A model generated the notes under the pieces. The model was not told where the DNA came from and did no database searches. It worked only from the letters and a program-made list of their open reading frames with translations. From Alphaproteobacteria bacterium (lineage in GTDB: Bacteria > Pseudomonadota > Alphaproteobacteria > JAGOMX01): DNA of 64,000 nucleotides. The DNA is taken from the NCBI GenBank assembly GCA_041738135.1, contig JBGSQK010000020.1, forward strand, positions 18,082 through 82,081, given 5' to 3'. The stretch's first letter is position 1; every line of letters begins with the position of its first letter. The position numbers were made by a program, and so were the translations under genes. This document shows, in pieces, positions 4,139 through 34,840 of this stretch.

Positions 4139-4141
4139 CCT

Positions 4142-4235
4142 TTAACCTCTCCCCAAGCGGAAGTAGGTTCAGAGCGAAGCGTAGGGGTGAGAGGGCGGCT
4201 GCGATTAAGTTAAGGGCAGTGGGGTAAGGGGTCTT
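4142..4235. repeat. MITE-like palindromic element, family C (TTAACCTCTCCCC...GAGCGAAGCG(G/T)AGGGGTGAG...), degenerate copy
   Basis: It shares TTAACCTCTCCCC...AGAGCGAAGCGTAGGGGTGAGAGGG with copies at 14448, 17121 and 25477. Confidence 0.6.
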
Positions 4236-14431: not shown

Positions 14432-14617
14432 TGGGGCTTTGCCCCACTTAACCTCTCCCCTTGTGGGAGAGGTCCGGAGCGAAGCGGAGGGGTGAGGGGC
14501 ACAAAAAAGCAATGTTTATCCCCCTCACCCGGCCTTCGGCCGACCTCTCCCACGGGGGGAGAGGTGAAGTCTCATGTTATTTTCTCAAATATCTTGGGGT
14601 TTGGGGCAAAGCCCCAA
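14432..14617. repeat. MITE-like palindromic element, family C, full-length copy flanked by a GGGGCTTTGCCCC/GGGGCAAAGCCCC hairpin pair
   Basis: TTAACCTCTCCCCTTGTGGGAGAGGTCCGGAGCGAAGCGGAGGGGTGAGGG...CCCTCACCCGGCC...CCTCTCCCACGGGGGGAGAGGTGAAG, with small GC hairpins at both flanks. Confidence 0.7.
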
Positions 14618-17120: not shown

Positions 17121-17175
17121 TTAACCTCTCCCCTTGTGGGAGAGGTCCGGAGCGAAGCGTAGGGGTGAAGGGACT
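17121..17175. repeat. Family C element, half copy
   Basis: TTAACCTCTCCCCTTGTGGGAGAGGTCCGGAGCGAAGCGTAGGGGTGAAGGG is identical to the left arm of the copy at 14448. Confidence 0.65.
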
Positions 17176-17263
17176 AACAAGCCGCTAGCTGCATCTTACA
17201 CAGGGTAAAAGGTGAATTTAAACATCCCTAACGGAGGCTTTGAAATGGTCACTATTATTTGGC

Positions 17264-18819: not shown

Positions 18820-18970
18820 AGTCCTGAAATCCATTCGTTGTACTGACTAAAATTAGTAAAATATGACCGCTCAATATAACATATGGTCAGGCGTGTACAA
18901 GAAAAAACTTTAAGAATTCAATTTAATCAGGCATTATCGTAAGGCTAAATTGTTAAAAGGGGCGCACATC

Positions 18971-21766
18971 ATGACAACGGATTATAAAGACTCAGTTTTT
19001 CTGCCTAAAACAGACTTTTCCATGCGGGCCAATCTTTCCCAAAAAGAGCCTGAGATTTTAAAGTCTTGGAATGATCGCAATCAATTTGCGCAGATGACAG
19101 AAATCCGTGAAGGTGCTCAGAAATTTATTCTGCACGATGGCCCCCCTTACGCCAACGGGCCAATTCACATTGGCACAGCCATGAATAAAATTTTGAAGGA
19201 CATTGTCAATCGTTCCTATCACCTGCTGGGACGTCAAATCGTTTACATTCCAGGCTGGGACTGTCATGGGCTTCCTATCGAAGCCAAGATTGAAGAAGAA
19301 TTCCGTAAGCAGAAAAAAACTCGCCATGATATTCCGGTCATTGAATTCCGCAAGGAATGCCGTGCCTATGCGCGTAAATGGATTGATGTGCAACGAGAGC
19401 AATTCAAACGCTTAGGTGTTTGGGCCGATTGGGATCATCCTTATATGACCATCGAGAAGAGCACCGAAGCCCAAATAGTCCGCGAGATGAGCAAATGTTT
19501 GCTCAATGGCTCCCTATACCGCGGCGAAAAGCCAGTTATGTGGTCCGTGGTCGAACAAACCGCATTGGCAGAAGCTGAAATCGAATACCATGACCATAAA
19601 TCTTCCTCAGTTTATGTGCGTTTTCCTATAGTTAAAGCAAGCTCTCCTGTATTTGAAGGTGCGGGAGCCGTTATCTGGACGACGACGCCGTGGACCCTAC
19701 CCGCCAATCGTGCCATCGCCTATGGGGATGAATTGGATTACGTTTTACTAGAAGTGGGAACTGTAGAAGAAAGCCTAGCCAAATCTGGCGACAAACTCAT
19801 TCTCGCCAAAGAACTGCAGGATGCGGTTTGCAAGCAACTGGGCATCACCGATTTCAAAATCGCCCACACATTCAAAGGATCCGAACTAGCCGGAACTATT
19901 TGCAAACACCCATTTGCAGACCAAGGTTATGACTTTGAAGTCCCCATGCTTCCAGGCGATCACGTCACCACCGAAGCAGGTACAGGCTTGGTTCATACAG
20001 CTCCAGCCCATGGTATCGAAGACTTTTATTTAGGTATGAAATATGGTCTAGAAGTGACAAAATTCGTACAAGGCGATGGCCTTTATTCTGATGACCTACC
20101 TTTGTTTGGCGGCCTCCATGTCTATAAAGCAGCAGGCCCCGTTATAGAAAAACTCATTGAAGTGAACGGCCTACTTTACCAAGGCGAAATACTGCACAGC
20201 TATCCCCATTCGTGGCGCTCAAAAGCCCCCTTGATCTATCGCACCACCCCACAATGGTTTCTATCCATGGAAAAAACCGGTTTGCGGGACAAAGCTTTAC
20301 AGGCCATTCGTGAAGTAAACTGGTTCCCAGAAAAAGGGCAACGTCGCATTGAATCTTTCGTGGAAGGAAGGCCAGACTGGTGCCTGTCCCGTCAAAGATC
20401 ATGGGGCGTTCCCATTGCTATCTTCATGCACAAGAAAACCCACGAACCATTAAGGGACGAAACAGTTCAAAACCGAATTGCTGATATTTTTGAGCAAGAA
20501 GGTGCAGACGTTTGGTTTGAAGGCGACAAAGCTCGCTTCTTAGGACCCGACCACAACCCTGACGACTACATACAAATCATGGATATTCTAGACGTGTGGT
20601 TTGACTCCGGTTGCAGCCATGCATTCGTTCTTGAAGCTCGCAAGAGCGAAGGACTCACCTGGCCAGCGGATCTTTACTTAGAAGGCTCAGACCAACATCG
20701 TGGCTGGTTCCAAACCTCATTGCTAGAAGCCTGCGGCACCAGAGGCAAAGCTCCCTATAAAAATGTACTCACCCACGGCTATGTACTGGACGACAAGGGC
20801 CGTAAAATGTCCAAGTCCCTAGGCAACGTGATCGATCCAGTCGCCATCGCTGACGAGATGGGCGTTGAAATGCTCAGACTTTGGGTTGCCAGCTCAGACG
20901 TCTCCGAAGACATCCGCATTGCCAAGGAGCGCATGAGTTATCAGCAAGACACCTACAGGCGCTTGCGCAATACTTTAAGGTACCTGCTAGGCGGTCTCAA
21001 AGACTTCAATGAATCAGAAAAAATCGAAACCTCCGCCATGCCCCAGCTGGAACAATGGGTTTTGCATCGACTATATGAACTAGACCAAACCATGCGCGAA
21101 TGCATCACCAATTTTGACTTCCAGAACTGGTTTACGGAACTGCACAATTTCTGTTCCGTCGATTTGTCGTCATTCTACTTCGATATCCGCAAAGATGTTC
21201 TTTACTGCGATTCACCAGACGACCTGACACGCCGTTCCATGAGAACCGTTTTTGATCAGCTGTTCAACTGCCTGACCACATGGATGGCTCCCGTACTTTG
21301 CTTTACCACAGAAGAAGCGTGGAGATGCCGCTACGGGGATGAAAGTTCTGTTCATTTACAGACCTTCCCCACAATTCCCGAATCCTGGAAAAATGCAAAG
21401 CATGCATCCCTGTTTAACGAAGTACGCAAATACCGCCGCCTGATGACCGGCGCCTTAGAAGGCGCTCGCGCAGATGGCGTCATCGGATCAAGTTTACAAG
21501 CAGTCATTGATATCTATGACCCAACGGGAGCATTACCTCAAAACATAGACTGGTCAGAAGTAGCCATTACCTCAGGCGCAGCAATTCTAAACCAACCAGC
21601 CCCGGAAGGCGCATACGGCATCAGCGATAACGAGAAAATCGGCATCGTGGTTAAACTCGCCCCAGGCGAAAAATGCCAACGCTGCTGGAAAGTTCTGGAA
21701 GAAGTTCATAACAAAGACTTATGTAATCGCTGCGATGAAGTGGTATCGAAACAAACCGCAGCATAA
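18971..21766 (+). CDS. ileS: Isoleucine--tRNA ligase
   Basis: MTTDYKDSVFLPKTDFSMRANL, the HIGH motif (PPYANGPIHIGTAMNK), KMSKS and a C-terminal zinc finger (CQRCWKVLEEVHNKDLCNRCDEV). The start is taken at the Met aligning with the E. coli IleRS N-terminus. Confidence 0.9.
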   Translation: MTTDYKDSVFLPKTDFSMRANLSQKEPEILKSWNDRNQFAQMTEIREGAQKFILHDGPPYANGPIHIGTAMNKILKDIVNRSYHLLGRQIVYIPGWDCHGLPIEAKIEEEFRKQKKTRHDIPVIEFRKECRAYARKWIDVQREQFKRLGVWADWDHPYMTIEKSTEAQIVREMSKCLLNGSLYRGEKPVMWSVVEQTALAEAEIEYHDHKSSSVYVRFPIVKASSPVFEGAGAVIWTTTPWTLPANRAIAYGDELDYVLLEVGTVEESLAKSGDKLILAKELQDAVCKQLGITDFKIAHTFKGSELAGTICKHPFADQGYDFEVPMLPGDHVTTEAGTGLVHTAPAHGIEDFYLGMKYGLEVTKFVQGDGLYSDDLPLFGGLHVYKAAGPVIEKLIEVNGLLYQGEILHSYPHSWRSKAPLIYRTTPQWFLSMEKTGLRDKALQAIREVNWFPEKGQRRIESFVEGRPDWCLSRQRSWGVPIAIFMHKKTHEPLRDETVQNRIADIFEQEGADVWFEGDKARFLGPDHNPDDYIQIMDILDVWFDSGCSHAFVLEARKSEGLTWPADLYLEGSDQHRGWFQTSLLEACGTRGKAPYKNVLTHGYVLDDKGRKMSKSLGNVIDPVAIADEMGVEMLRLWVASSDVSEDIRIAKERMSYQQDTYRRLRNTLRYLLGGLKDFNESEKIETSAMPQLEQWVLHRLYELDQTMRECITNFDFQNWFTELHNFCSVDLSSFYFDIRKDVLYCDSPDDLTRRSMRTVFDQLFNCLTTWMAPVLCFTTEEAWRCRYGDESSVHLQTFPTIPESWKNAKHASLFNEVRKYRRLMTGALEGARADGVIGSSLQAVIDIYDPTGALPQNIDWSEVAITSGAAILNQPAPEGAYGISDNEKIGIVVKLAPGEKCQRCWKVLEEVHNKDLCNRCDEVVSKQTAA

Positions 21767-21817
21767 AAGGTTGTTTTTATGCATACCTCGCTCATTCTCA
21801 ACAAATGGGCGGGGTAA

Positions 21818-22816
21818 CTATCCCTTAATGACTTTGACATAATCCTTAACTACGAAGAATTCTGCAGGCATCCCGTGCACATCATCGCGCAAATTGCTTC
21901 CGATTTCAGGATAGCCTTCTCCTGTTTCAAAGCTCTGAAACTTCAATGGCCCAACCAACTTCCTAGCCCTTTCTGAGATTCTATCTTCCGTAAAATTGCT
22001 GTCATAAACCAAACTGCAAGGGTTATAGGTATATTCAATTCCATCACGTTTTTCCACAGGGGAGCAGCTGATGCCCCTCAAAAAAGAAAAGTGGTTTTTT
22101 TGGGGACCGATGTCAACTTTGTATGGCCTTGAATTTAGAATAAAACGACTTTCATCTGTACCAGCGTCGATTAGCTCCTGGGTCTCTTTACGGGTGACCT
22201 CAGAGAGGGCAAAAACACTACAGCTGGCTAAATTAACACCCGGAAGGTAAATAGCGCCCTCTGGCTTAAGGAGTCTAACAATACGAATCATCCTAATTGT
22301 ATCCCATTCAGCAAATTTAAGCACAGACCAATCAAAATAGATCTTGCTTACAGGGCCATTAAATTTAACTTTGCCTGTATCTTGAGGAAGGAGCAGCGCT
22401 ATCAAATGATTCCAATCATCCATCTTGTTAAAGTCAGCATAAAAAATAGGGGAACGTTCATTGGCTGATCTAAAATCGACCCTTTCATCATTGGTGAAAA
22501 ATATTCGGACGGGTGCTTTAAAGGGGTACTGACCTACGCCATTCTCACGCGCTTCCCTTTCCCTGTCTTGATCGATCAATCTTTTCATATGGTTTTCATA
22601 AGGACCGGCACCAAGGACGATATGTAACTCTCGCCCTTCTTGTAGGGCAAACTGAGGTGCCCGCTCCAAGTAAACCTTGAGGTTTCTGTCCGCATTAAAC
22701 TGCTTGCTCAGCTCTACACTCCGAGCACTTTCTTGCTCATTATAAAAAGCTGTAGCGGAGGCAGCACTATTAAAGCCTAGGGCTAATAAGGAAATCGCAA
22801 AAATTTTCTTCAACAT
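21818..22816 (-). CDS. Hypothetical secreted protein with weak Rossmann/methyltransferase-like motifs
   Basis: The 332-aa ORF has a signal peptide (MLKKIFAISLLALGFNSAASA). Possible motif I-like (HIVLGAGPYE) and motif III-like (LLKPEGAIY) segments are seen. There is no confident family assignment. Confidence 0.45.
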   Translation of the reverse strand: MLKKIFAISLLALGFNSAASATAFYNEQESARSVELSKQFNADRNLKVYLERAPQFALQEGRELHIVLGAGPYENHMKRLIDQDREREARENGVGQYPFKAPVRIFFTNDERVDFRSANERSPIFYADFNKMDDWNHLIALLLPQDTGKVKFNGPVSKIYFDWSVLKFAEWDTIRMIRIVRLLKPEGAIYLPGVNLASCSVFALSEVTRKETQELIDAGTDESRFILNSRPYKVDIGPQKNHFSFLRGISCSPVEKRDGIEYTYNPCSLVYDSNFTEDRISERARKLVGPLKFQSFETGEGYPEIGSNLRDDVHGMPAEFFVVKDYVKVIKG

Positions 22817-23043
22817 ATTTTACTCCAATAAATATTCATCAGCCTATCTAAAATATGGGGCCAATTCGTAATGGCCTATATATATGATATATATGACTAG
22901 ATTTTAATCTGTCAAGTAATCTCGATTATTTTGATACATGGGGACTGCTACGTTAGTAAATGGTTCAGGGGCTTCCGGGACACTAAAAATCTGCAAACGC
23001 ACATAGCTTTCAAGTTTTTCATACCAGAAGGCGCATACGGCTC

Positions 23044-23185
23044 CATCGATAACGAGTATAGGCATCGTAGTAAAGCTCGCCCCAGGCGAAAAATGCCAAC
23101 GCTGCAGGAAAGTCTTAGAAGAAGTGCATAACAAGGACCTGTGCAATCGTTGCGACGACGTGATGGCAAACGAACCGCTGCCTAA
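23044..23185 (+). pseudogene. Displaced, frameshifted remnant of the ileS 3' end
   Basis: The fragment is about 85% identical at DNA level to ileS 21602..21766 (GAAGGCGCATACGGC...GCCCCAGGCGAAAAATGCCAACGCTGC...CATAACAA...), but an indel breaks the frame. It lies 1.28 kb downstream of the intact ileS stop. Confidence 0.8.
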
Positions 23186-23258
23186 AGATTTTTTTATCAC
23201 TTGCAACCTCGCTCTATCGCAAGATTAGAGCGAGGAAGCAAACAGAACGCATTCAAGG

Positions 23259-24146
23259 TTAGCGCTTCTTTTGAAGGTCTTTTTTAAGGCCTTCAATTGC
23301 GGATTTTATATTAACTTGGCCCAGTCTATAGATTTTATCCTGACAGCCATCGTCAAAGGTTTCCACATCTTCAAAAGGAAGACTTATTATAAAGTCAGCC
23401 CCTTTAAGAGCCAACTTTGAATGGTGCAAATAACTAATTTCCAGAGATCTTTTAGCAACACCAAACAAATGGTTGGGAGCTTTCTTACCGAGTTTACCGG
23501 ATAGATCAACGGCAATGACGTATTTAGCTCCTAACTGTCGAGCCGTCTCAACAGGACAAGGGCTAGCCACACCGCCATCCACGTAATACTGACCATTAAT
23601 ATTAACAGGCTGAAAGACGCCTGGATAAGCAGCAGATGCCATCACAGCATCGGTTATAGATCCTTGGCCAAAAGCTGTGGGGTCGCCAAATTCAAGATTA
23701 GTCGCCACCGCAACAAAAGGTATTTTCATTTCTTCTATATTTTTTGATTTCAAATGCTTATTTAGAAAATTCTCGAGAGCCACACCACGGGAGAGTCCGA
23801 ACGTAATGTTTCCAAAAGCGAAATCGAGCAAATCGCTACGAGTTTGTTTTAACAAGTCCTCCTTAAGACTTTCTAAATTGACCCCATCAGCATAAAAAGC
23901 ACCAATTATAGCTCCAGCGCTACATCCAACGATTAAATCAGGCTTAATTCCTGCAGCCTCTAATTCTTCCAAGATAGCAAGGTGAGCAATTCCTTTTACT
24001 CCACCGCCTCCAAGAACCAAGGCCGTATTAATGTTCTTGTAAGCTGGCAGCTTCGGATGGCTACACTTTTCATAATGTGAAAAATTCAAGCTGTAACAGC
24101 CCGATAAAAAGATAGGCAACAAAAGTGCAGTTAACTTAAGCCTCAT
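23259..24146 (-). CDS. Patatin-like phospholipase, predicted lipoprotein
   Basis: It has the oxyanion GGGxxG (GGGGVKG), the GxSxG nucleophile (GCSAG), a catalytic DGG (YVDGGV) and a lipobox LSGC in the signal peptide (MRLKLTALLLPIFLSGCYS). The start is taken at MRLK. Confidence 0.8.
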   Translation of the reverse strand: MRLKLTALLLPIFLSGCYSLNFSHYEKCSHPKLPAYKNINTALVLGGGGVKGIAHLAILEELEAAGIKPDLIVGCSAGAIIGAFYADGVNLESLKEDLLKQTRSDLLDFAFGNITFGLSRGVALENFLNKHLKSKNIEEMKIPFVAVATNLEFGDPTAFGQGSITDAVMASAAYPGVFQPVNINGQYYVDGGVASPCPVETARQLGAKYVIAVDLSGKLGKKAPNHLFGVAKRSLEISYLHHSKLALKGADFIISLPFEDVETFDDGCQDKIYRLGQVNIKSAIEGLKKDLQKKR

Positions 24147-24362
24147 CAAGCCTTCCAAATCAAATTGTATGTACATATATGTTTATTCTATATTTCACTA
24201 AAGACAATCTCACAACGGCATTACAAAATGGGATATAACTCGAAATTTCTATGTCAGTCAAGAATATTTCGGAATAAGCATCCGCTGATCTAATTGACTG
24301 CAACTTTTATCTGTTGTATCAGTTATTTTTGACAGACAATTCAAACTGTAAGACAAAGAATT

Positions 24363-25415
24363 ATGAACACAAATTTTACCTTATTTCTTCCAAAACAGAT
24401 GCCTAGCGAATGGCAGGAAATTCCCAAGTCACAATCATATCGAGAAGAACTGCCGCCATATAACATGCAAGACCCATCCACGCGAACCGCCTGGTCCAAT
24501 TGGAGTGGGATTCATAACTCCAGTTACAAAACGGATTTTATGCATCGATCAGGATCCATCATCCGCTGTAAACAGTATCTATACGATTTAGGCCCCTTGT
24601 CGGCGAGCGACCATGCGGCGCTTTATGACCATTTTCATTGGAGATTAGGCCACCGCATATCTGGTGATCGTATTTATTGGCATGGATACGATTACGCCGT
24701 AAAACCTGCCTTGACGTTTCAGGATTCGGGCACCAACATTGAACTACGGGTGGTTCAAGGCGAAGTGTCGACCGAGGAGCTCATTACATTAGCCGAGCAT
24801 CTGCAGCCGGAAAATGATCTGCTAAATAACACGCCTTTTGCTGAAAAAAGTTACTGGTCTCGTTATCCACGCTACGATCTAAATCTCTATATACCAGATT
24901 CCCAATACAAAATCCCTTCCAGCCTATGGAAACTCCGCTGGCCCTTATGGCAAGCAGAGCATCGTTGGGAATTGTTTGAAAAAGACTTGGTTTCAGACGT
25001 GATGAATCGCATATTGCAGGAACTAAGACAATTTGGATTTGAGTCCGACAGCATATGCACCTTTGGTGAACAGCTGGAAGTTCAACTATTTCTTAAGCAC
25101 AAACAGCATCCAAATATCCATGGCTGGCTCCGTCGCTTGAACTCAAAATCAAGCCCTCTCAAACAACCCAGGCCCGATCGCTTGCCTGAAATGGATTCCT
25201 TTAGTGGATTTACAGGATTCGGGATCAACGTACTGGAGTCATCCAAATTCGAGACACCCATTTACATAGCAAGCGTGAGCAAAGAAATTGGCCCGTTTGA
25301 CATCATTTGGTGGGACAAAGGTCATATGTATCTTGTTCAGATAGTAGCTTCAACGGAATTTGATTTGAAAAAAGTTCTTCTGCTGGCTGAAAGGATAGAA
25401 GGCAATCTTGAGTAA
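24363..25415 (+). CDS. Hypothetical protein (350 aa), no recognisable motif
   Basis: A long ORF in an accessory-looking cluster, Trp/His-rich, with no signal peptide. Confidence 0.45.
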   Translation: MNTNFTLFLPKQMPSEWQEIPKSQSYREELPPYNMQDPSTRTAWSNWSGIHNSSYKTDFMHRSGSIIRCKQYLYDLGPLSASDHAALYDHFHWRLGHRISGDRIYWHGYDYAVKPALTFQDSGTNIELRVVQGEVSTEELITLAEHLQPENDLLNNTPFAEKSYWSRYPRYDLNLYIPDSQYKIPSSLWKLRWPLWQAEHRWELFEKDLVSDVMNRILQELRQFGFESDSICTFGEQLEVQLFLKHKQHPNIHGWLRRLNSKSSPLKQPRPDRLPEMDSFSGFTGFGINVLESSKFETPIYIASVSKEIGPFDIIWWDKGHMYLVQIVASTEFDLKKVLLLAERIEGNLE

Positions 25416-25476
25416 TCTCAAGATGGCCTCTTAGCATTAATTTTGAGCATATTTCAAAACTCAAACGGATGTTAAA

Positions 25477-25610
25477 ATTCACCTCTCCCCTCTGTGGGAG
25501 AGGTCGGCCGCAGGCCGGGTGAGGGGGTCCTGCAGCAGTCTGGGAGCGGCTTGTAAGCACCCTCACCCCTCCGCTTCGCTCCGGACCTCTCCCACAAGGG
25601 GAGAGGCGAA
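25477..25610. repeat. MITE-like palindromic element, family C, copy 4
   Basis: TTCACCTCTCCCCTCTGTGGGAGAGGTCGGCC...GGTGAGGGGG...CCCTCACCCCTCCGCTTCGCTCCGGACCTCTCCCACAAGGGGAGAGGCGAA, sitting between convergent genes. Confidence 0.7.
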
Positions 25611-25629
25611 AAGCGGTTTCGAAAAGCCT

Positions 25630-26556
25630 TCAATTATCTAATCTAAGCGTCGTTCTCAACGCACCCATTATCTCATCCTGGCTGTCATACCTAGGTATGG
25701 TAATGTAGTCAACACCCCATAGGCAGTCTAAAACCGTCTTGATAATTGGACGCTTTGTGCCCATGATTTCTTTTATAGTCAATGCTTTGAGAGCTGGGTC
25801 ATGAGGCTTTTCAAGCAAGTCCAAGACCGCAACCAGTTCTCTGGCAGGCGTATGATTTGCTCTTTTTGCAGCATGTAACTGATTGTATGCCATTAAAGGA
25901 TTTACCACATCCACACCCAAAAATCTGAATGTATTGAGATACTCAACCCGGGCCATTGGATTTCTAATTTTATCAGTACACTTGAAAAAGTCAGCAACGT
26001 CTCCTTCTGCAAAATATGAGTCAAAAGCCGCTGCAAAGTCCAAAGCATGTGGTTGCAAAAGACTCATTTCTATACCGCCATAAAATTTGCCATGTAGCCA
26101 AGTACCGGCGCAATCCAAAGCAAATTGAGCTGCCCCTTCCTCTAGCTGTTTTGCATGATATAACATGTTCGGGAAATCAAATGATTCACCAAATGACATC
26201 AACATTTCTGTATAGAGCCATTGCAATGATTCTCCGGAAGTTTCGGCATTGTACGCAAGCTTCCTTAAAGCAAATAATGATCCTTCTCTAGCTTGGTATA
26301 TAAGATCATTTCTTTCCTCTAATTGTCTTTTACTTTCTTCTAATTGCTCTTCTCGTTGTCTCAAAAATGATTCGAATGATTCAATTGCGGCTTTTCCATC
26401 TGCTAAAAAATATTTAGCTACTGCACTATGGATGGGAGCAGTAAATTTAATTTTTACACTATCTGGTTGTTCAATATCACTTGCCATACATGTGCTGGAA
26501 AATGCTACGGATGAGACTAAAGCTAGAATTGTCAGTGACTTGCGTTTAAATTGCAT
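25630..26556 (-). CDS. Hypothetical secreted protein (308 aa)
   Basis: It has a signal peptide (MQFKRKSLTILALVSSVAFSSTCMA) and a charged coiled-coil segment (REEQLEESKRQLEERNDL). No family is recognised. Confidence 0.45.
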   Translation of the reverse strand: MQFKRKSLTILALVSSVAFSSTCMASDIEQPDSVKIKFTAPIHSAVAKYFLADGKAAIESFESFLRQREEQLEESKRQLEERNDLIYQAREGSLFALRKLAYNAETSGESLQWLYTEMLMSFGESFDFPNMLYHAKQLEEGAAQFALDCAGTWLHGKFYGGIEMSLLQPHALDFAAAFDSYFAEGDVADFFKCTDKIRNPMARVEYLNTFRFLGVDVVNPLMAYNQLHAAKRANHTPARELVAVLDLLEKPHDPALKALTIKEIMGTKRPIIKTVLDCLWGVDYITIPRYDSQDEIMGALRTTLRLDN

Positions 26557-26614
26557 TGAGATTCTCCCTGTTAGTTGGTCTGTTTGTTATAAACGATAAA
26601 GGTTAGTTTTTTAT

Positions 26615-27775
26615 TTATGCCGCCGTTCTCCAAGAATTTACATATTCTTCTAATTCTACCCCCATAGCCAATGAACCAACTTCTAATGCGTCTCGTGTGT
26701 CAATCATAACAGCCACTTCATCCGTTTCGGTTTTCAGGCCCGCATGGGATGCCAGATAAGCTTTAGGATGTGGTCCATGGGTAAATCCTGAGGGATGAAA
26801 TGTCACCATCCCCGGATGTATGTTATCCCGACTGAAGAAATTTCCTTTGTGATAGAACAAGACCTCATCATAATCGTCGTTGTTATGATAGAAAGGCACC
26901 TTAAGGGCACCCGGATCGCTCTCAAGAGGACGCGGACAAAATGTACAGACCACAAATCGATTGGTTACAAATGTGGTATGAGCGGAAGGCGGCAAATGAT
27001 ACCGGTGACTCATCACGGGGCGAATATCCCGCCAATTGATTCGCACTGGCATTAAATTTCCGTGCCAACCTACCGTATCCAGAGGATTAAACGGATAGGT
27101 TATGGTTGTGTACTGATCACGTCTTTTGACGATGACTTGCCATTGTTTCACATCAGATTGTTGTGCTAAGAATTCTTCGTCAATGACAGGTGCGTCCAAC
27201 TTAGCAGGATCAAATATGGCATGCCCGCCCAACATACCTTTGTCAGGCATTTTGTAGCTGTCCGAGGTAGCTTCAATCAATAAGGCTGAGATCGGTTCCT
27301 TCACATCGAGCCGCCACATGGTGCCGCGGGGCAGGACCACATAGTCCCCATCCCGGATAAAAAGATGGCCATAATCACAATAAAGATCCGCAGACCCTTC
27401 ATGCACAAATATAAGCTCATCACCGTCACCATTGCGCACCAATTGCTTCATAGATGAAGCGGTTTGCCAATAACGCATTTTAACATGTGAGTTATGCAGG
27501 AAGGTCGTCGCTTTCCAAGGACTTTCGCTAGAAACCTGAATTTTGTTGAGATCCAGTGCACGTGGTTTTAACGGCCCATCCCAATCAATCCAACCCGTAG
27601 GAGGATGCTTATGATGCATATGCGTTGCAGGTCCAAAAAACCCCTCGCGCCCTAATTCACGCTCATAGGTGTCTTGAGGAAAATCAGCATGAGCCTGCCG
27701 AGACGCCTGGCCTTCAATTCGTGAGAGAGAGATCCACTGTTTCATTTTTTTTATTCTCTTTTGTATTTGTAACAT
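26615..27775 (-). CDS. hmgA: Homogentisate 1,2-dioxygenase-like cupin dioxygenase
   Basis: RNGDGDELIFVHEGSADLYCDYGHLFIRDGDYVVLPRGTMWR and the C-terminal HPSGFTHGP resemble the HGD active-site regions. The start may be the internal MKQW. Confidence 0.6.
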   Translation of the reverse strand: MLQIQKRIKKMKQWISLSRIEGQASRQAHADFPQDTYERELGREGFFGPATHMHHKHPPTGWIDWDGPLKPRALDLNKIQVSSESPWKATTFLHNSHVKMRYWQTASSMKQLVRNGDGDELIFVHEGSADLYCDYGHLFIRDGDYVVLPRGTMWRLDVKEPISALLIEATSDSYKMPDKGMLGGHAIFDPAKLDAPVIDEEFLAQQSDVKQWQVIVKRRDQYTTITYPFNPLDTVGWHGNLMPVRINWRDIRPVMSHRYHLPPSAHTTFVTNRFVVCTFCPRPLESDPGALKVPFYHNNDDYDEVLFYHKGNFFSRDNIHPGMVTFHPSGFTHGPHPKAYLASHAGLKTETDEVAVMIDTRDALEVGSLAMGVELEEYVNSWRTAA

Positions 27776-27868
27776 GTTTAAGGGCAGTTTACTAGGCAGC
27801 TTGTTTATTTCATAGATTTTTATTGCGTTTTGAGGTATCTCTAAGCTGTATAATGCTTAGGATATGAA

Positions 27869-28891
27869 ATGACACAACCCATACACATGACAGACGTTGC
27901 CATAATTGGTGCCGGCCCCGTTGGCCTTTTTTCCATCTTTGAGTGCGGTATGCTGCGCCTGAAATGTCATGTTATTGACGCCCTTGATATGATCGGCGGC
28001 CAATGTGCAGCCTTGTATCCGGAAAAACCCATTTACGACATCCCAGCCCATCCGAGCATTTTGGCTCTGGATTTGGTAGAGAAACTCGGTGAACAAGCAA
28101 AACCCTTTGAACCCGTTTACCATTTCGGTCAGCGCGTTGAGGAAATTTCCAAACAAGATTCCGGTCGCTTCGTTATTAAAACATCGGCAGGCATTGAAAT
28201 CAATACGGGCGCAATTATCATAGCTGCAGGCGTAGGTGCCTTTGGACCGAACCGCCCGCCCCTTGAGGGCATAGAAGCGTATGAAGGATCATCCATATTT
28301 TATTTTGTTAAAAGCCGTGAAGAATTTCGGGGCAAAAGAATCGTCATCGGCGGCGGTGGAGATTCAGCGGTTGACTGGGCCCTGTCCTTAAGCGAAGTGG
28401 CAGAGCATGTAACCCTTGTACACAGGCGGGCCAAGTTCAGAGCAGCCCCCGAAAGCCTAGCAAGGCTCGAGTTCTTGGCAGCGGAAGGAAAAATAGACCT
28501 AGCAGTCCCCTACCAACTTTCAGGCCTCGAGGGTGAAAATGGTCAATTAACATCCGTAATTATAGAGGACTTAGATGGCCACAAGAAAACCGTCAAAGCC
28601 GATTGTTTGCTGCCGTTTTATGGTCTAGCCATGAACTTAGGACCCATTGCCAATTGGGGTTTAAGCTTGGATCGCAACCACATCACCGTCGACCAATCAA
28701 CCAGCCAAACGTCAGAAACCGGCATCTACGCCATCGGCGATATAGCCCATTACCCCAACAAGCTAAAGCTGATCCTAACAGGCTTTGCCGAAGCAGCCCA
28801 AGCAGCCCACTCCATCAGAGCTCTCCTACACCCTGATGAAGTGGTTCATTTCGAATACTCCACCACTAAAGGCGTACCGGGTCAGGGTTGA
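27869..28891 (+). CDS. Ferredoxin--NADP+ reductase, thioredoxin-reductase-like type (two Rossmann motifs)
   Basis: The FAD-binding motif is VAIIGAGPVGLF, the NAD(P) motif is IVIGGGGDSAVDWAL and GIYAIGDIA is present. There is no CxxC redox centre, consistent with TrxR-like FNR. Confidence 0.7.
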   Translation: MTQPIHMTDVAIIGAGPVGLFSIFECGMLRLKCHVIDALDMIGGQCAALYPEKPIYDIPAHPSILALDLVEKLGEQAKPFEPVYHFGQRVEEISKQDSGRFVIKTSAGIEINTGAIIIAAGVGAFGPNRPPLEGIEAYEGSSIFYFVKSREEFRGKRIVIGGGGDSAVDWALSLSEVAEHVTLVHRRAKFRAAPESLARLEFLAAEGKIDLAVPYQLSGLEGENGQLTSVIIEDLDGHKKTVKADCLLPFYGLAMNLGPIANWGLSLDRNHITVDQSTSQTSETGIYAIGDIAHYPNKLKLILTGFAEAAQAAHSIRALLHPDEVVHFEYSTTKGVPGQG

Positions 28892-28905
28892 GTGAGCTAA
28901 TAAAG

Positions 28906-29070
28906 CCCCGTCATCCAGAGCGCGCCTCGGCAAAGCCGAGGAAGCGTGGGATCCAGAATATGAGCGTCGCGCAGCGACTCATTATAGCTATACGGAGCCG
29001 CTATCGCGGCACTCATTATCTGGATCCCACGCTTCCTCGGCTTTGCCGAGGCGCGCTCTGGATGACGGGG
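28906..29070. repeat. MITE-like palindromic element, family A (subtype 2), copy 2
   Basis: CCCCGTCATCCAGAGCGCGCCTCGGCAAAGCCGAGGAAGCGTGGGATCCAG...CTGGATCCCACGCTTCCTCGGCTTTGCCGAGGCGCGCTCTGGATGACGGGG, nearly identical to the copy at 40036. Confidence 0.85.
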
Positions 29071-29098
29071 TTATCAACTTCCAGAAACAACTAACTCC

Positions 29099-31507
29099 TC
29101 ACCCATGCGCCCGCATATTAGGCAGCTTAGGCTGCGGAATCTGTTGCAGATTCATCGGAATGATACAGGTAACTTTCGTTCCTGCTTTTTGCTTAGATGA
29201 CATCATAACTCTGCCGCCGTGCATTTCGATGAGGCTTTTCACCAAGGACAAGCCAAGACCGATACCATCATAGCGATCGATAGCTTCATCCGTTCTTTCG
29301 AATTTACGGAATATGCGTTTTTGATCTTTGCGCGATATGCCTGCACCTGTATCAGAAACCGTCAGATGTAAGTTCTGACCAATCCTGGCAGCTGAAAGGG
29401 CAATCTTGCCACCCGCTTGCGTAAACTTTATGGAGTTTTGAATCAGATTGATAAGTGCTTGCTTGAGCCTTCTTTCATCGGCAACAAAATCTCCAATATC
29501 CGGTGCGCATGTGACAGTTAGCGTAAGCTTTCTGTCTTGAATACGCTTTTCGGCGATGCTGGCCACGCTATTCAGCACAGACTTAGTATCCACTGGCTGC
29601 AAGTTCAAATTCATTTGTCCTGCTTCGATGGTAGCAAGGTCAATAATGTCGTTGACCAGTATCAACAATTGATTGGAGGAATCCAATATCCCCTTACAAT
29701 AGGTACTTTGCTGAGGATTTAAATTACCAAAATACTGGTCTGAAAGGATCTCGCCGAAGCCAATGATCGTATTGATAGGAGCTTTTAGATCGAACGAAAA
29801 GCTGTGTAAAAACTCAGACTTGATTCTATCTGCCACTTCCAGTGCTTGGTTTCGTTCTCGCAATGCGCGCTCGGCACGGTAGCTATCTGAAACATCTGTG
29901 TAACTGATTAAATGAGCCCCGTCCGGCAAAGGCACATAAGTGAAATCTAAAATGGTGTCATCCTTACGGGTCAAACGACCATTTTTGGGAATGCGATCTG
30001 TGATATTTTCAATAATCTTTTGTTTGTAGGTCTCCCAACTATCACCTGAGTCAAAAAATCCCCGGATTTGTTCTATGATATCCGATATATGCCTTCCCGG
30101 CTCAAGAAATTCCGATGAAAGCTTCCACAGCCGAGCAAAAGCAGGATTGACGAGTTTTAGACGATTATCGCTAGCAAACACCGCTACGCCTTCGAACAAA
30201 TGATCCAGCGTTTCCTTCTGGACTGCTAGCTGCGTATTGGCTTGGCGTTGAATAATTAGGCTGTCGGTTACATCTTCAAACACGAATAGCAACCCGCCAC
30301 CCGGATGAGGGGCAACCACAGTACGGATGGTCCGTTCATCAGGCAAATGGAGCAACTCTTGTATAGGATTCAGCAAAGATTTGAACATCTGATGCGTACG
30401 TTGCTTAAAAGCTGGAAAGTCCGCATGTTCAGTTAACAACCTGCGCTTATGTAAATTATCCAATATGTCCGTCATAAGAGGATGTGTATGCAACCAGGTT
30501 TCATCCATATCAAACATGCGAGCATAAGCATGATTGAAAAAGGCTAGTCTTTTTTCCGTGTCATAGATGACAACAGCAGATGCAATGTTTTCCAGAATTT
30601 CCTTATGACCTGACATATGTCGATGAACTTCTTTTTGCAACTTTTCAATCTGGGTATGGTCAACCGCATAACCAACGTAACCTTTAACCTCGGAAACAGG
30701 CAGTTCGTGATATTCCAACAGATGTCGAGCGCCATCTATGACTGTATGTTCGCTCAAGCTCTTACGTCCTGCCTGATCAGTCACTAATGTTCCAGACCAT
30801 AAGTTCTGATCACGCTTAAGAGCTAGCTGAGGTGAGGTTTCTAAGATTTCTGCATAATTCTGATTACAATAGGTGAGTTGACCGTCATCTCCCCGAAGCC
30901 ATACGGGCATGGGGAGGGAGTTTAATACCGTATTCAGAACCTTATTTGAAAGAGCTCGGGTTGACATTTCCGTAGGGGATAAAGTTTCTCTGAACCACAA
31001 CACATAGGAAGTATGGGGCGGATCGCTTACTTCTCTTGCCAAAAATATGCAGCTACTTTTATCCTTTTTCATGGTGAGTTTGATATCAAAAGACGCCCCC
31101 TTGTCTTTAAGGTGAACCATTTTTTCCCGCATGAGTTCTACGTCAGAAGCCAGAAAACAACCAGAAAATTCTTTAAAATGAATTTCATAACGCTCATGCA
31201 AGCCAAGATAATCAGCCAGTCTTGGATCCAGAATCATAAAATCCTGATCAGGAGTCCAAATAAGCCACTTTGCAGGGCAAAAATCCAGTAGGGTTTTATA
31301 AAAGTTATGTTGCGTGCTGCGACTTAAAAGTACTTTCTCATTTTCTAGCAACTGATTATTCTTCCGAATAATCATCATGACAAGGTATGAAATTATGGAG
31401 AGCGATAAAAGAGTCAGAAAAAAGAACAAAAAGCTCCAGTCGAACAAATTATCAAAGATGTTCGTTTTAAGCATAGAAAAGAATGTTTTTATCAGCCCGT
31501 TTTCCAC
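29099..31507 (-). CDS. Membrane-anchored multi-PAS sensor histidine kinase (no receiver domain)
   Basis: It has an N-terminal TM helix, several PAS-like segments, a HisKA H-box (HSFSFDLKAPINTIIGFGE) and HATPase_c N/G1/G2 boxes (NLIQNSIKFT, DTGAGIS, GIGLGLS). Confidence 0.8.
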   Translation of the reverse strand: MENGLIKTFFSMLKTNIFDNLFDWSFLFFFLTLLSLSIISYLVMMIIRKNNQLLENEKVLLSRSTQHNFYKTLLDFCPAKWLIWTPDQDFMILDPRLADYLGLHERYEIHFKEFSGCFLASDVELMREKMVHLKDKGASFDIKLTMKKDKSSCIFLAREVSDPPHTSYVLWFRETLSPTEMSTRALSNKVLNTVLNSLPMPVWLRGDDGQLTYCNQNYAEILETSPQLALKRDQNLWSGTLVTDQAGRKSLSEHTVIDGARHLLEYHELPVSEVKGYVGYAVDHTQIEKLQKEVHRHMSGHKEILENIASAVVIYDTEKRLAFFNHAYARMFDMDETWLHTHPLMTDILDNLHKRRLLTEHADFPAFKQRTHQMFKSLLNPIQELLHLPDERTIRTVVAPHPGGGLLFVFEDVTDSLIIQRQANTQLAVQKETLDHLFEGVAVFASDNRLKLVNPAFARLWKLSSEFLEPGRHISDIIEQIRGFFDSGDSWETYKQKIIENITDRIPKNGRLTRKDDTILDFTYVPLPDGAHLISYTDVSDSYRAERALRERNQALEVADRIKSEFLHSFSFDLKAPINTIIGFGEILSDQYFGNLNPQQSTYCKGILDSSNQLLILVNDIIDLATIEAGQMNLNLQPVDTKSVLNSVASIAEKRIQDRKLTLTVTCAPDIGDFVADERRLKQALINLIQNSIKFTQAGGKIALSAARIGQNLHLTVSDTGAGISRKDQKRIFRKFERTDEAIDRYDGIGLGLSLVKSLIEMHGGRVMMSSKQKAGTKVTCIIPMNLQQIPQPKLPNMRAHG

Positions 31508-31610
31508 AGTTTCTTTTTCTTGGCCTTCGCACAGTTTAAAACAGAAAGCACCCTTGCGAAGGAATAAAGTGCCCTTAAGTTATATCAGACTTTTTCTATA
31601 ACGGAAATTT

Positions 31611-32600
31611 TCAATTTTCAAGTATAATTGTTTTACCCTCTTCATAGGTAATTTCGATAGCATCTTGTTCGATGATCCTACTCATATATTTGAGTAATTT
31701 AGCCGCCTTGTCGGATTTTCTTGTTTTACCTATTTTAAGTTCGAAATTTGAAGGATATTCATAATCCGCAAAACCATCAGGTAAAGAAATGTCTGAAATT
31801 AGGATTGTTAAATGAGGATACTTAGTAGCAAATCTTGCAGCAAGACCAACTAGTAGCACATTGTTACAATCTGGCCCCGGAGTTAGATCAATTTTACAAT
31901 CTGATACGTTCCGCGATACCATGACACCTAAAAGATCGACAACTTGCTGTGCATTTAGATTGTGCCCTTTACAAAGTAGAATGTTGAGATTTTTAAAACT
32001 GTCGACATTTAAATTTAAGTAATTGATTAAACCAGGCAACACAATTGGGTTGCATCCAGAAAAATTCATACCCTTCACATCAAATTCCTTATTAATATAG
32101 GTAAGGGCCGTCTCACATGTTTCTTCTGAGTCAACAAGTTGTAAAATGTCTCCTGGCTTTAACATAGAGTTTTTTCCCAAGTAATCCAGGAACTTGTTCG
32201 TTTTCACGGCTTCATGGCTATCCGTATCCAGACTGATGTTTAAAGGCGCTCGCAAAAATTGTTTTGGCGGAGTCACTCCTGTATCTTGCGTACTTTCATC
32301 CCTGTCAGGTGCGGCACCAATATATACTTGATCAGGTGTCTGCGCAGGATCAGATAAGTCTGGCCACCAAGTTAGTTGAAATCCAGCCACCTCATCTGCA
32401 ACACTGCTAAACGCAGATGAAATTCTTTCTTGAAAATAGCTGAAGAAAGGCAGCGTAGCGCAATCTGGATTAAGTTCGCGAAGATCAATAACCGGCCCCA
32501 TATTTCTCGGCGGCGCCATGTAATGGTTGAATTCTTGGTCTGACGCCCATAAGGGCGAGCTGTTTAACATGAGCATGATTGTATATACGAGTCTTTTCAT
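31611..32600 (-). CDS. Hypothetical secreted protein (329 aa), Leu/Asn-rich
   Basis: It has a signal peptide (MKRLVYTIMLMLNSSPLWA). A segment looks leucine-rich-repeat-like (LNLNVDSFKNLNILLCKGHNLNAQ). Confidence 0.45.
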   Translation of the reverse strand: MKRLVYTIMLMLNSSPLWASDQEFNHYMAPPRNMGPVIDLRELNPDCATLPFFSYFQERISSAFSSVADEVAGFQLTWWPDLSDPAQTPDQVYIGAAPDRDESTQDTGVTPPKQFLRAPLNISLDTDSHEAVKTNKFLDYLGKNSMLKPGDILQLVDSEETCETALTYINKEFDVKGMNFSGCNPIVLPGLINYLNLNVDSFKNLNILLCKGHNLNAQQVVDLLGVMVSRNVSDCKIDLTPGPDCNNVLLVGLAARFATKYPHLTILISDISLPDGFADYEYPSNFELKIGKTRKSDKAAKLLKYMSRIIEQDAIEITYEEGKTIILEN

Positions 32601-32661
32601 CTTATATCTCCATATTTTGTATGTGTAGCTAACAAACTGAAATACTAAGACTTACAAAAGA

Positions 32662-33876
32662 TCAATCCACGCTTAAGCAAGCGGCAAGCTGTTCTACCGC
32701 CCAATCAATTTCTTCTTTTGTTATCACTAATGGTGGCGCCAATCTGATGGTTGTTTCGTGGGTTTCCTTCGTCAGAACTCCTTTTTCAAGCATTTTTTCC
32801 GCAACTTGGCGGCCGGTAACAATGCGTGAATCCAGTTCTATTCCTATCCACAAGCCTTTACCTCGAACTTCTTTAATTGCATGACTTCGGATTTTGTTTA
32901 TGCTCTCAATCATATAAGAACCTAACTCATGGCTCTTATCCACTAGATTTTCAGTTTCTATCACCTTTAAAGCCTGCAGCCCGATCGCTGCCGCAAGGGG
33001 ATTGCCACCAAAAGTTGAACCGTGAGTTCCTGGCTCAAATAGCTGCATTATGTCTTTGCGAGCAAGAAAAGCAGAAACAGCCATAATACCCCCACCCAGC
33101 GCTTTACCCAGTATGAGCCCATCAGGCTTGGCATCCTCATGCTGAAAAGCAAACATTTTCCCCGTCCGACCCAGTCCGCTTTGCACTTCATCCAAGATAA
33201 ATAAGACATTATTCTGTTGGCATACAGACTTAACCTGGCGTAGATACCCCTCAGGCGGAACTATAATACCAGCTTCACCTTGAATAGGCTCTATAATCAC
33301 AGCGCAAGTATTGGGCGTGATGGCATTGGCTATAGCATCTACGTTTCCAAATGGAACGCTGACAAAACCAGGAGCAAAAGGACCGAAATTATGTTTACTC
33401 TCCACATCGCTAGAAAAACCAACCACAGTGGTGCTGCGTCCATGAAAATTATTATCAGCTACGATGATTTCTGCTTTATAACGGTCAATGCCTTTGACCA
33501 AATAGCCCCATTGCCTTGATGCTTTGATAGCTGTTTCCACAGCCTCCACGCCTGTGTTCATAGGAGCAGCCATGTCCATGCCAGACACTTCGCATAATTT
33601 GAGCAGAAATGGCGCCAACCTATCATTATAGTAAGCCCTTGAAGGCACGCACAGACGTTGAGCTTGCTCAAACATGGCTTGCAACATCTTTGGATGCCCA
33701 TGCCCCAAGCTTACCGCAGAATAGGCGGACATCATGTCCAAATACCTTTTACCCAGAATGTCCCAAACCCAAGATCCTCTGCCATGTGATAATACAACTG
33801 GTAAAGGATGGTAGTAGCGAGCTGTAACTTTTAGTTCTTCCTCGATCAAATAGTTTCTTTCCACTGACATAACCAT
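32662..33876 (-). CDS. rocD: Ornithine aminotransferase (class-III PLP aminotransferase)
   Basis: YHPLPVVLSHGRGSWVWDILGKRYLDMMSAYSAVSLGHGHP, the PLP lysine region (DEVQSGLGRTGKMFAF) and GKALGGG are present. It lies adjacent to an arginase gene. Confidence 0.75.
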   Translation of the reverse strand: MVMSVERNYLIEEELKVTARYYHPLPVVLSHGRGSWVWDILGKRYLDMMSAYSAVSLGHGHPKMLQAMFEQAQRLCVPSRAYYNDRLAPFLLKLCEVSGMDMAAPMNTGVEAVETAIKASRQWGYLVKGIDRYKAEIIVADNNFHGRSTTVVGFSSDVESKHNFGPFAPGFVSVPFGNVDAIANAITPNTCAVIIEPIQGEAGIIVPPEGYLRQVKSVCQQNNVLFILDEVQSGLGRTGKMFAFQHEDAKPDGLILGKALGGGIMAVSAFLARKDIMQLFEPGTHGSTFGGNPLAAAIGLQALKVIETENLVDKSHELGSYMIESINKIRSHAIKEVRGKGLWIGIELDSRIVTGRQVAEKMLEKGVLTKETHETTIRLAPPLVITKEEIDWAVEQLAACLSVD

Positions 33877-34785
33877 TTACCCCTCCCTACTGAGTAATTC
33901 TCGTAAGATTTTGTGTATAAGATGAGCGGTTTTCATTTGTTGATCCAAATGAGGATTATACTCCGTTATCTCCAAAGCTTTGAATTTAGGGTTATCTCGC
34001 AACAAATGCAGACTTGGAAGCACATCCTCAGTCAAGAGACCGCCTTCTGCGGGACTGCCAACACCTGGCGCCACCGACGGGTCAAAGCCATCTAAATCCA
34101 GACTTAAGCCAAACCCTTTGGTGCCCGTGCTAACAATATGGATTGCTTCCTTAAGAACCGCTTCAAATCCCTTTTTCCTAACGTCTTGCGCATAAAAAAC
34201 TTTTACGCCTAGCTCTGTTAACAGATTTTTCTCACCTTCTTCAAAACTGCGAACACCTATTAGCACTACATGCTCTGGCTTTACTTTTGCATTGGGGTTT
34301 CCCAGCTGCGTCAATTCAGGAAGCCCATGCCCCAACAAACTTGCCACAGGCATGCCGTGATAAGCAAAGGAAGGGCTGGTGGTGGGGGTATGGGCATCCA
34401 TATGAGCATCAAACCAGATAAGCCCGAATTCACCAACCGCATCCATAGACGTGGTAACAGCGCTCCAAGTGCCAACCGCAATGGAATGATCGCCACCGAT
34501 GACACATGGGAAATTGCCTTGATGAACTGTTTTTGTAACCGCACTTAAAATATTCTGACACATGTCGCTCACATAAGGGATACAGTGAGCCGGATGAATA
34601 TCATTGTCATTGGCAAAACGCAGGAATGGGTAGAGAATTTCTTGCCAATCCACAGAAAAATTCTCTTGCTGCAACTTCTCAACAAGGCCAAAATGCTTCA
34701 TGGCATCGGGCCCATGTTCAGTGGTCCGCTTTTGAGCCCCCCATCCTGTGGCGGCGCCTATGAGAGAAGTGTGTTTTATTGACAT
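33877..34785 (-). CDS. rocF: Arginase (ureohydrolase family)
   Basis: The Mn-binding motifs are GGDHSIAVG, DAHMDAHTP and SLDLDGFDP. The start is taken at MSIKHTSLIG (ATG at 34785). The 50-codon N-terminal extension in the ORF track would overlap phrB and is judged artefactual. Confidence 0.75.
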   Translation of the reverse strand: MSIKHTSLIGAATGWGAQKRTTEHGPDAMKHFGLVEKLQQENFSVDWQEILYPFLRFANDNDIHPAHCIPYVSDMCQNILSAVTKTVHQGNFPCVIGGDHSIAVGTWSAVTTSMDAVGEFGLIWFDAHMDAHTPTTSPSFAYHGMPVASLLGHGLPELTQLGNPNAKVKPEHVVLIGVRSFEEGEKNLLTELGVKVFYAQDVRKKGFEAVLKEAIHIVSTGTKGFGLSLDLDGFDPSVAPGVGSPAEGGLLTEDVLPSLHLLRDNPKFKALEITEYNPHLDQQMKTAHLIHKILRELLSREG

Positions 34786-34840
34786 ACTATTAATTTTAAC
34801 TAAAAAAAGGCCACTTGGCAAATGATTGGGAAACAATTCA

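Follow-up and report, generated by a model that had tools for sequence, protein, structure and literature searches.

Four genes between ileS and a conserved gene block in an alphaproteobacterial contig form a probable mosaic at a synteny breakpoint

The sequence analyzed here (the window) is a 64,000-nucleotide (nt) stretch of contig JBGSQK010000020.1 from an alphaproteobacterium of the lineage JAGOMX01, and the subject of this report is a run of four consecutive genes at positions 21818 to 26556 of it. The first (21818-22816, minus strand) encodes an exported protein of 332 amino acids (aa) from a rare unannotated family with a predicted class-I methyltransferase-like fold. It is followed by the gene of a patatin-like phospholipase with a putative lipoprotein signal (23259-24146 or 24176, minus strand; 295 or 305 aa), by a gene for a cytoplasmic Trp- and His-rich protein of 350 aa from a small conserved unannotated family (24363-25415, plus strand), and by a gene for an exported, lineage-specific protein of 308 aa (25630-26556, minus strand). 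The left flank consists of an Elm1-like gene, greA, and ileS (starting at 18950 or 18971 and ending at 21766, plus strand). On the right, a gene with HmgA_N and cupin matches (26615-27775, minus strand) is followed by a ferredoxin-NADP reductase-like gene (FNR; 27869-28891, plus strand) and a gene for an 802-aa PAS histidine kinase.

A first-pass annotation had described the four genes as an accessory cluster of secreted unknowns and a patatin-like phospholipase with no housekeeping counterparts. The table of open reading frames (ORFs) confirms all four at these coordinates. None carries a housekeeping annotation, and the 332-aa, 350-aa, and 308-aa proteins have no match in Pfam, NCBIfam, PHROG, or PADLOC. 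Wherever a metagenomic relative was close enough for the test, the 332-aa gene had a ratio of nonsynonymous to synonymous divergence (dN/dS) of 0.30, the 350-aa gene one of 0.14, and the 308-aa gene one of 0.12, which points to purifying selection and thus to real genes rather than chance ORFs. Their GC content (40-45%) lies around that of the window (44%), and that of the flanking housekeeping genes is 46-50%. All products but the 350-aa protein, which has no signal peptide, bear an export signal, either a signal-peptide-like stretch or a lipobox; signal peptides and lipoprotein status were judged by eye from the sequence. Judged in this way, the 332-aa and 308-aa proteins, which had been called secreted, are indeed probably exported, as both have a signal-peptide-like N terminus with an AxA-type cleavage site. 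A scan for promoters and terminators gave counts at chance level.

The 332-aa gene is bracketed by two copies of the 3' end of ileS. The first copy (21602..21801, plus strand) completes the functional ileS with the final 165 nt of that gene, extends 35 nt beyond it, and ends in CCTCGCTCATTCTCAA. It is read in the ileS frame and contributes the zinc-finger motif CQRCW...CNRCDEV of the C terminus. The second copy (23024..23222, plus strand) is a pseudogene fragment with a 2-nt deletion that is still readable in two frames. The two are 79% identical over 205 nt (E=1e-44), so that the ileS-fragment scar noted earlier at this place is real. Across 37 aligned codons they differ by 11 synonymous and 2 nonsynonymous changes, in addition to the 2-nt deletion in the second copy. 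Because the differences are mostly synonymous, the copies must have diverged while both were functional, and hence in different lineages, before being joined by recombination. The same pattern rules out a local duplication of ileS with later decay of one copy. The scar is also overlapped, mostly on the opposite strand, by an ORF of 98-100 aa (22904-23206, minus strand) that is called in the public Logan assembly; it has no family match and is most likely a spurious call.

Between these ends, a unit of about 1.1 kb (21786..22921, minus strand) consists of a single gene, the 332-aa gene, with about 105 bp upstream and about 32 bp downstream. The metagenomic contig L092 (JGI 3300050211) shares only this part of the window, 21786-22921, with 87% nucleotide identity over 1136 nt and without gaps. 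Both flanks of the unit in L092 are unrelated to the window, and the metagenome from which it comes also holds copies of neighboring window genes with about 92% identity. A hairpin with a 10-bp stem (CCTCGCTCTA-9 nt-TAGAGCGAGG), read from the sequence at 23207..23235, lies between the ileS scar and the stop codon of the patatin gene. Both ileS copies and the L092 unit have a common end at CCTCGCTC(A/T)..., which is the left arm of this hairpin, and the hairpin probably represents the terminator that they originally shared. Having no T-run, it escaped the consensus terminator scan.

The 332-aa gene is thus bracketed by a xenologous duplication, and it is a recent import. A segment of about 1.1-1.4 kb with an ileS 3' end and the 332-aa gene, derived from a related lineage, would have recombined into ileS, leaving the gene flanked by an intact and a displaced ileS 3' end. 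The insertion may have occurred through an islet of the kind that targets gene 3' ends, since decayed, or through homology-facilitated illegitimate recombination. Islets that target tRNA and tmRNA 3' ends and homology-facilitated illegitimate recombination likewise leave the insert bracketed by an intact and a displaced 3' end of the target. As in integrase-mediated islands, direct repeats of the target 3' end are present, but here no integrase was found, only one gene was inserted, and the repeats measure about 200 nt. No integrase or transposase was found in the unit or beside it in L092, where the flanking ORFs of 83 and 112 aa have no Pfam or PHROG match; an integrase next to the L092 unit was accordingly dropped as a candidate. 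The idea that the 332-aa gene stems from a phage or plasmid was discarded as well, since tblastn gave no match in phage and plasmid collections and the family profile none in IMG/VR. The locus illustrates cleanly how one gene can be imported along with a replacement for the 3' end of an essential gene.

The other end of the four-gene run has a different history. The metagenomic contig L093 is collinear with window positions 25456-28278 at 92% identity. A second contig, L082, has the order 350-aa homologue, 448-aa gene, FNR, 802-aa kinase, 313-aa gene, aminotransferase, and arginase, which is the gene order of window positions 24363-34935, with 85% aa identity in FNR. The 448-aa protein of L082 has a signal peptide and stands at the position of the 308-aa gene, and the C-terminal ~220 aa of the 308-aa protein are 27% identical to it (E=6e-24); in a large database the 308-aa protein has only homologues of 92-94% identity. 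This synteny in L082 and L093 indicates that the lineage has retained the 350-aa and 308-aa genes by vertical inheritance.

The limit of this conserved block can be placed within the intergenic region between the patatin and 350-aa genes. The contig L094 (85% nucleotide identity) aligns with the window only from 24287 rightwards, and its 392 bp further upstream are unrelated and contain no patatin gene, which sets a synteny breakpoint at 24147..24286. On the left, the contig L099, which is close to the window in GreA (91% aa identity) and IleS (80%), carries a different gene, in convergent orientation, downstream of ileS and has no Elm1-like gene. The stretch from about 21786 to 24287, which includes the 332-aa unit, the ileS scar, and the patatin gene, therefore has no conserved position in any available relative and fills a breakpoint between the greA-ileS block and the 350-aa/308-aa/FNR/kinase block.

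The families themselves show no tendency to occur together. No two of the patatin, 332-aa, and 350-aa families were combined in the 80 ileS loci listed, the nine loci of the 350-aa family, the loci of the 332-aa family, or the five patatin loci. None of the relatives among the fetched loci holds the four genes as one block, nor the patatin gene beside ileS or the 350-aa gene. The 80 listed ileS loci of species representatives contain no patatin, 332-aa, 350-aa, or 308-aa gene and no greA within 10 kb, and with an IleS identity of at most 57% among the matches listed these loci are too distant to inform synteny.

Together, these data favor reading the region as a mosaic of four independent components at a synteny breakpoint and not as a functional cluster, with a probability of about 0.7. 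The four genes have unrelated histories and, to judge from their contexts, unrelated functions. The description as an accessory cluster holds in part: the 332-aa and patatin genes are accessory by position, as they lie in a positionally variable stretch, whereas the 350-aa and 308-aa genes are syntenic with the FNR/histidine kinase block in relatives (about 92% in L093; also L094 and L082). Some points weigh against this reading. The outgroup L099 is equidistant from the two ileS copies (63.6% and 64.9%), and the comparison with it does not decide which copy is native. The insertion mechanism is deduced from the arrangement of the repeats, because no integrase or transposase was found. Finally, the relatives are metagenomic contigs, several of them just 1.4-2.8 kb long, so that the absence of the patatin gene holds for those positions and not for whole genomes.

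The strongest competing explanation is that of an ordinary conserved neighborhood, in which all four are vertically inherited core genes that look like orphans through poor database sampling. The lineage is indeed poorly sampled, as the low IleS identity to species representatives among the matches listed attests, the synteny of the 350-aa and 308-aa genes fits, and the GC content of all four genes is near the window mean. This explanation is nevertheless unlikely, since the 332-aa gene stands in another context in L092 and is bracketed in the window by xenologous ileS ends, the region upstream of the 350-aa gene differs in L094, and the gene downstream of ileS differs in L099. The patatin gene itself may still be a core gene that has been relocated.

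The 332-aa family is the most novel element of the locus. A word-indexed search of 5.8 billion proteins retrieved a single homologue, with 83% identity, and an exhaustive HMMER search of 1.84 billion cluster representatives gave 22 matches to the family, one of which is a low-complexity artefact. All members are metagenomic and none is named. Their alignment shows a hydrophobic, signal-peptide-like N terminus in nearly every complete member and the conserved segments RELHIxLGAxPxExH, KAPIRIFF, DFN, DKIYFDxS, LLKxxGxLYxP, and YPxIGxxxR; some members carry C-terminal extensions of 150-300 aa.

The AlphaFold model of the 332-aa protein is confident and resembles class-I S-adenosylmethionine (SAM) methyltransferases only, the predicted structure conforming to their seven-stranded Rossmann-like fold. 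Examples of these enzymes are TrmB (1yzh and 3dxx) and the aminoglycoside-resistance 16S rRNA methylases. In the region of motif I the protein has G69-A-G-P after strand 1, of which the family keeps only G69. E74, N130, and D162 are nearly invariant in the family, and the acidic residue of strand 2 is not conserved. Neither the 332-aa protein nor the 22 family members match a methyltransferase sequence profile in Pfam or NCBIfam, and the family profile found nothing significant among the PDB sequences. The faint Rossmann/methyltransferase-like motifs seen at first are therefore borne out at the level of the modeled fold, with motif I reduced to one glycine. This reduction and the missing profile match set the family apart from class-I methyltransferases, and so does its conserved Sec signal peptide.

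The 332-aa protein is, judging by its model and its N terminus, a Sec-exported member of a rare unannotated family with a divergent class-I methyltransferase fold. SAM is not known to be available in the exported compartment, and the family raises the question of how this fold is used where SAM is absent. It can be proposed, as an improbable speculation, that the proteins are an undescribed, horizontally mobile family of Sec-exported methyltransferase-fold proteins that act outside the cytoplasm, either as SAM-dependent modifiers inside a host or prey cell or with the fold repurposed for a cofactor-independent reaction in the envelope.

The patatin gene encodes a bona fide member of Pfam family PF01734 (E=3e-38; 132.4 bits against a gathering cutoff of 27.7), the match spanning residues 53-212 of the 305-aa form and profile positions 1-190 of 191. 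The ATG at 24146, which gives the 295-aa form, is the better start because it has a GGAAGG Shine-Dalgarno sequence 5 nt upstream. In the numbering of this form, the oxyanion loop GGGGVKG occupies residues 46-52, the nucleophile is Ser76 within GCSAG (74-78), and the catalytic aspartate is Asp190 within DGG (190-192); these align with GGAARG, GTSMG, and DGG of PlpD, respectively. The N terminus reads MRLKLTALLLPIFLSGC and contains a lipobox, read by eye as LSGC (L14-S15-G16-C17). All of the motifs that had been noted (GGGxxG, GCSAG, DGG, and the lipobox) are thus intact, and both residues of the Ser/Asp dyad are present.

A metagenome scan retrieved patatin homologues at five loci, with 32-35% identity and no closer orthologue among them. 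They are small single-domain proteins, with a length of about 260-300 aa when counted from the predicted start, that have lipoboxes of their own (FVQGC and LFSC), and they lie on contigs from assorted unrelated metagenomes with 43-61% GC. As these homologues share both the lipobox and the small single domain, they point to a recurrent bacterial architecture, that of a lipid-anchored patatin hydrolase of the envelope. The window protein appears to be a typical member of this widespread subfamily of lipoproteins of about 260-300 aa, and an ordinary envelope lipoprotein lipase rather than an injected effector of the ExoU/VipD type. Its lipidation, localization, and substrates are predictions from the family. 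The protein would be exported via Sec by its signal peptide, lipidated at Cys17, and tethered to a membrane, by default the outer one, since residue +2 is Tyr and not Asp. The Ser76/Asp190 dyad, with the oxyanion loop G46-G52, would then hydrolyze the fatty-acyl ester bonds of phospholipids or of lysophospholipids, acting either on the periplasmic face or at the cell surface. A likely role is envelope lipid turnover or the scavenging of external lipid. Other patatin-family proteins occur in the outer membrane proteome of Myxococcus (PMC3222651).

The nearest solved relative is the patatin domain of PlpD from Pseudomonas aeruginosa (PDB 5fqu/5fya; E=1.5e-29), a protein of type Vd secretion. The two are alike in the aligned oxyanion loop, GxSxG serine, and DGG aspartate, and both are exported to the cell envelope. 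PlpD, however, exports its patatin domain by means of a POTRA domain and a 16-stranded β-barrel, whereas the window protein would be anchored by its lipobox. It stops at residue 295 with no POTRA domain, β-barrel, or further Pfam domain, which rules out a type Vd autotransporter. The best curated match is to RssA/YchK of enterobacteria (NCBIfam NF007623; E=1.7e-34), proteins that are likewise single-domain and about 300 aa long. Orthology with RssA/YchK was rejected, as the score of 119.4 bits is well under the equivalog cutoff of 272, and the window protein in addition has the lipobox.

A resemblance also exists to CapV, the patatin phospholipase activated by cyclic GMP-AMP in the cyclic-oligonucleotide-based antiphage signaling system (CBASS), through the patatin domain (NF041079; E=1.9e-10). 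The score is 40.5 bits against a cutoff of 200, and CapV is cytoplasmic, whereas the window protein has an export signal. The PADLOC models of phospholipase effectors that match the window protein at E=1e-14 are generic, and the NCBIfam model of an antiphage lipase scores far below that of RssA/YchK. No gene for a CD-NTase (cGAS/DncV-like nucleotidyltransferase) adjoins the patatin gene, whose neighbors are the 350-aa gene on one side and, on the other, the ileS scar and the 332-aa gene. With generic models and no partner genes, a CBASS-like defense role was set aside.

The first-pass annotation had compared the patatin with secreted effectors of intracellular bacteria, namely ExoU of P. aeruginosa, VipD of Legionella, and Pat1/Pat2 of Rickettsia. 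By extension, the four genes could form a virulence islet of an intracellular bacterium, acquired together, in which the patatin and the secreted unknowns are directed at a host. ExoU, VipD and VpdC of Legionella, and Pat1/Pat2 do share with the window protein the Ser-Asp dyad and the N-terminal glycine-rich and GxSxG motifs. The intact catalytic motifs, the export signals on three of the four products, and the mobility of the 332-aa gene with the highest dN/dS of the set (0.30) also agree with an islet of this kind. YchK, which represents the closest curated family and is related to but distinct from the window protein, has been linked to virulence and host-interaction phenotypes in Klebsiella (10.1101/2024.05.28.596221).

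Against this stands the make-up of the patatin protein itself. In the alignment to PDB sequences, its similarity to VipD (E=6e-8) and ExoU (E=8e-4) is confined to the N-terminal motif region at about residues 41-109 and a marginal stretch near the DGG, far behind the match to PlpD. The weak partial matches to the NCBIfam model of VpdC, which might be counted in favor of an effector, reach 45.6 bits against a cutoff of 1000. The ExoU, VipD, VpdC, and Pat effectors are proteins of 550-880 aa with extra C-terminal domains that are delivered by type III or type IV secretion systems (T3SS or T4SS) and are not Sec lipoproteins. The patatin domain and its extension fill the mature 295-aa protein, and no extra C-terminal domain for localization or activator binding was found. 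Moreover, the same lipoprotein architecture recurs in the unrelated metagenomes described above, the four genes are not co-inherited, and the 350-aa and 308-aa genes are vertically conserved. The flanking genes and ten further window genes that were scanned include no gene of a T3SS, T4SS, or type VI secretion system. The window also has genes for a photolyase, an arginase, and a malic enzyme as well as fadE, and nothing in it points to obligate intracellular life. The effector analogy thus fails for a small protein with Sec and lipobox signals that is nearest to PlpD, and a host-directed islet is distinctly improbable. Since the patatin is an ordinary member of a widespread envelope-anchored class, it does not hint at a novel mechanism of virulence. 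What makes the locus valuable is the ileS 3'-end import, the exported methyltransferase-fold family, and the neighborhood of the 350-aa family described next.

The 350-aa protein contains 13 Trp and 13 His residues (3.7% each), in agreement with its earlier description as Trp/His-rich. Its 16 homologues are 36-58% identical and share 27 invariant residues, with motifs that include YDxGPxSxxDH, YWxR, and PSxxWxxRWP; the protein has no family annotation and no signal peptide. Neither the profile of this family nor the 308-aa protein found anything significant among the PDB sequences. In four of five independent contexts outside the lineage of the window, a member of the family adjoins a gene for a 2-oxoglutarate-Fe(II) (2OG-Fe(II)) oxygenase of 241-250 aa from Pfam family PF13640. 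The oxygenase genes lie at 6878-7603 of L082, 5270-5995 of L104, 8984-9736 of L086, and 7130-7882 of L102, each beside a 350-aa homologue. The oxygenase gene is divergent in L082, lies 5 bp upstream on the same strand in L104 and L105, and is convergent in L086 (with a 4-bp overlap) and in L102 and L103 (with a 10-bp gap). Across these three arrangements the oxygenases are 41-44% identical. This recurrence suggests that the 350-aa family and the PF13640 oxygenase are a functional pair, and one possibility is that the 350-aa protein is a substrate or partner of a prolyl-hydroxylase-like 2OG-Fe(II) oxygenase. No PF13640 oxygenase gene was found in the 64-kb window or in the contig L085, and the adjacency has been lost in the lineage of the window, where rearrangement has probably broken the partnership. 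There, the 350-aa gene remains as a member of a conserved cytoplasmic family, with the lineage-specific exported 308-aa protein kept beside it. The neighborhood provides a testable hypothesis for two unannotated families.

In another reading, the patatin would be an antibacterial or self-damaging lipase toxin neutralized by the divergently transcribed 350-aa protein, whose Mog1/PsbP-like β-sandwich domains would be like those of the type VI secretion lipase immunity proteins TplEi and Tli4, but this is highly improbable: the β-sandwich matches are weak and generic (PsbP, Mog1, DcrB, and LpqN score equally), the 350-aa protein has no signal peptide while the lipase is exported, the patatin is present in 0 of 9 loci of the 350-aa family and a 350-aa homologue in 0 of 5 patatin loci, the adjacency is missing in the close relative L094, and it is the 2OG-Fe(II) oxygenase that recurs beside the 350-aa family.

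The miniature inverted-repeat transposable element (MITE) reported at the cluster is also real. This GC-rich palindromic MITE-like repeat, with arms GGGAGAGG...CCTCTCCC, occupies 25478-25614 between the 350-aa and 308-aa genes and is found at the same place in L093. Further copies lie at 14452-14568, 17125-17186, and 4138-4191. The copy at 17125-17186 abuts the Elm1-like gene (PF06258; 17264-18337, minus strand), which stands between greA and fadE, is missing at the matching position of L099, and represents a second variable spot near ileS.

Synonymous divergence (dS) from the relatives differs between the genes of the region. It is 0.29 for the 332-aa gene (against L092) and 0.24 for the 308-aa gene (against L093), and about double, 0.47-0.60, for the hmgA-like gene, FNR, and the 350-aa gene. 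The lower values are compatible with a later exchange of the 332-aa and 308-aa genes between lineages. The hmgA-like gene at 26615-27775 (minus strand) encodes a protein of 376-386 aa that scores 98.6 bits against the TIGR01015 cutoff of 510.75, and L082 has no such gene between its 448-aa gene and FNR. Instead of a true homogentisate dioxygenase, the product may be a cupin dioxygenase with a different specificity.

Elsewhere in the window, an ORF of 592 aa (10583-12361, minus strand) has no Pfam match, and neither has one of 329 aa (31611-32600, minus strand), which is syntenic with the unannotated 313-aa gene of L082. In L092, the ORF upstream of the 332-aa homologue resembles the C terminus of a repeat protein like the 980-aa protein of the window (49600-52542, minus strand). 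The latter carries He_PIG, bacterial Ig, cadherin-like, and RTX calcium-binding repeats and is probably a type-I-secreted adhesin.

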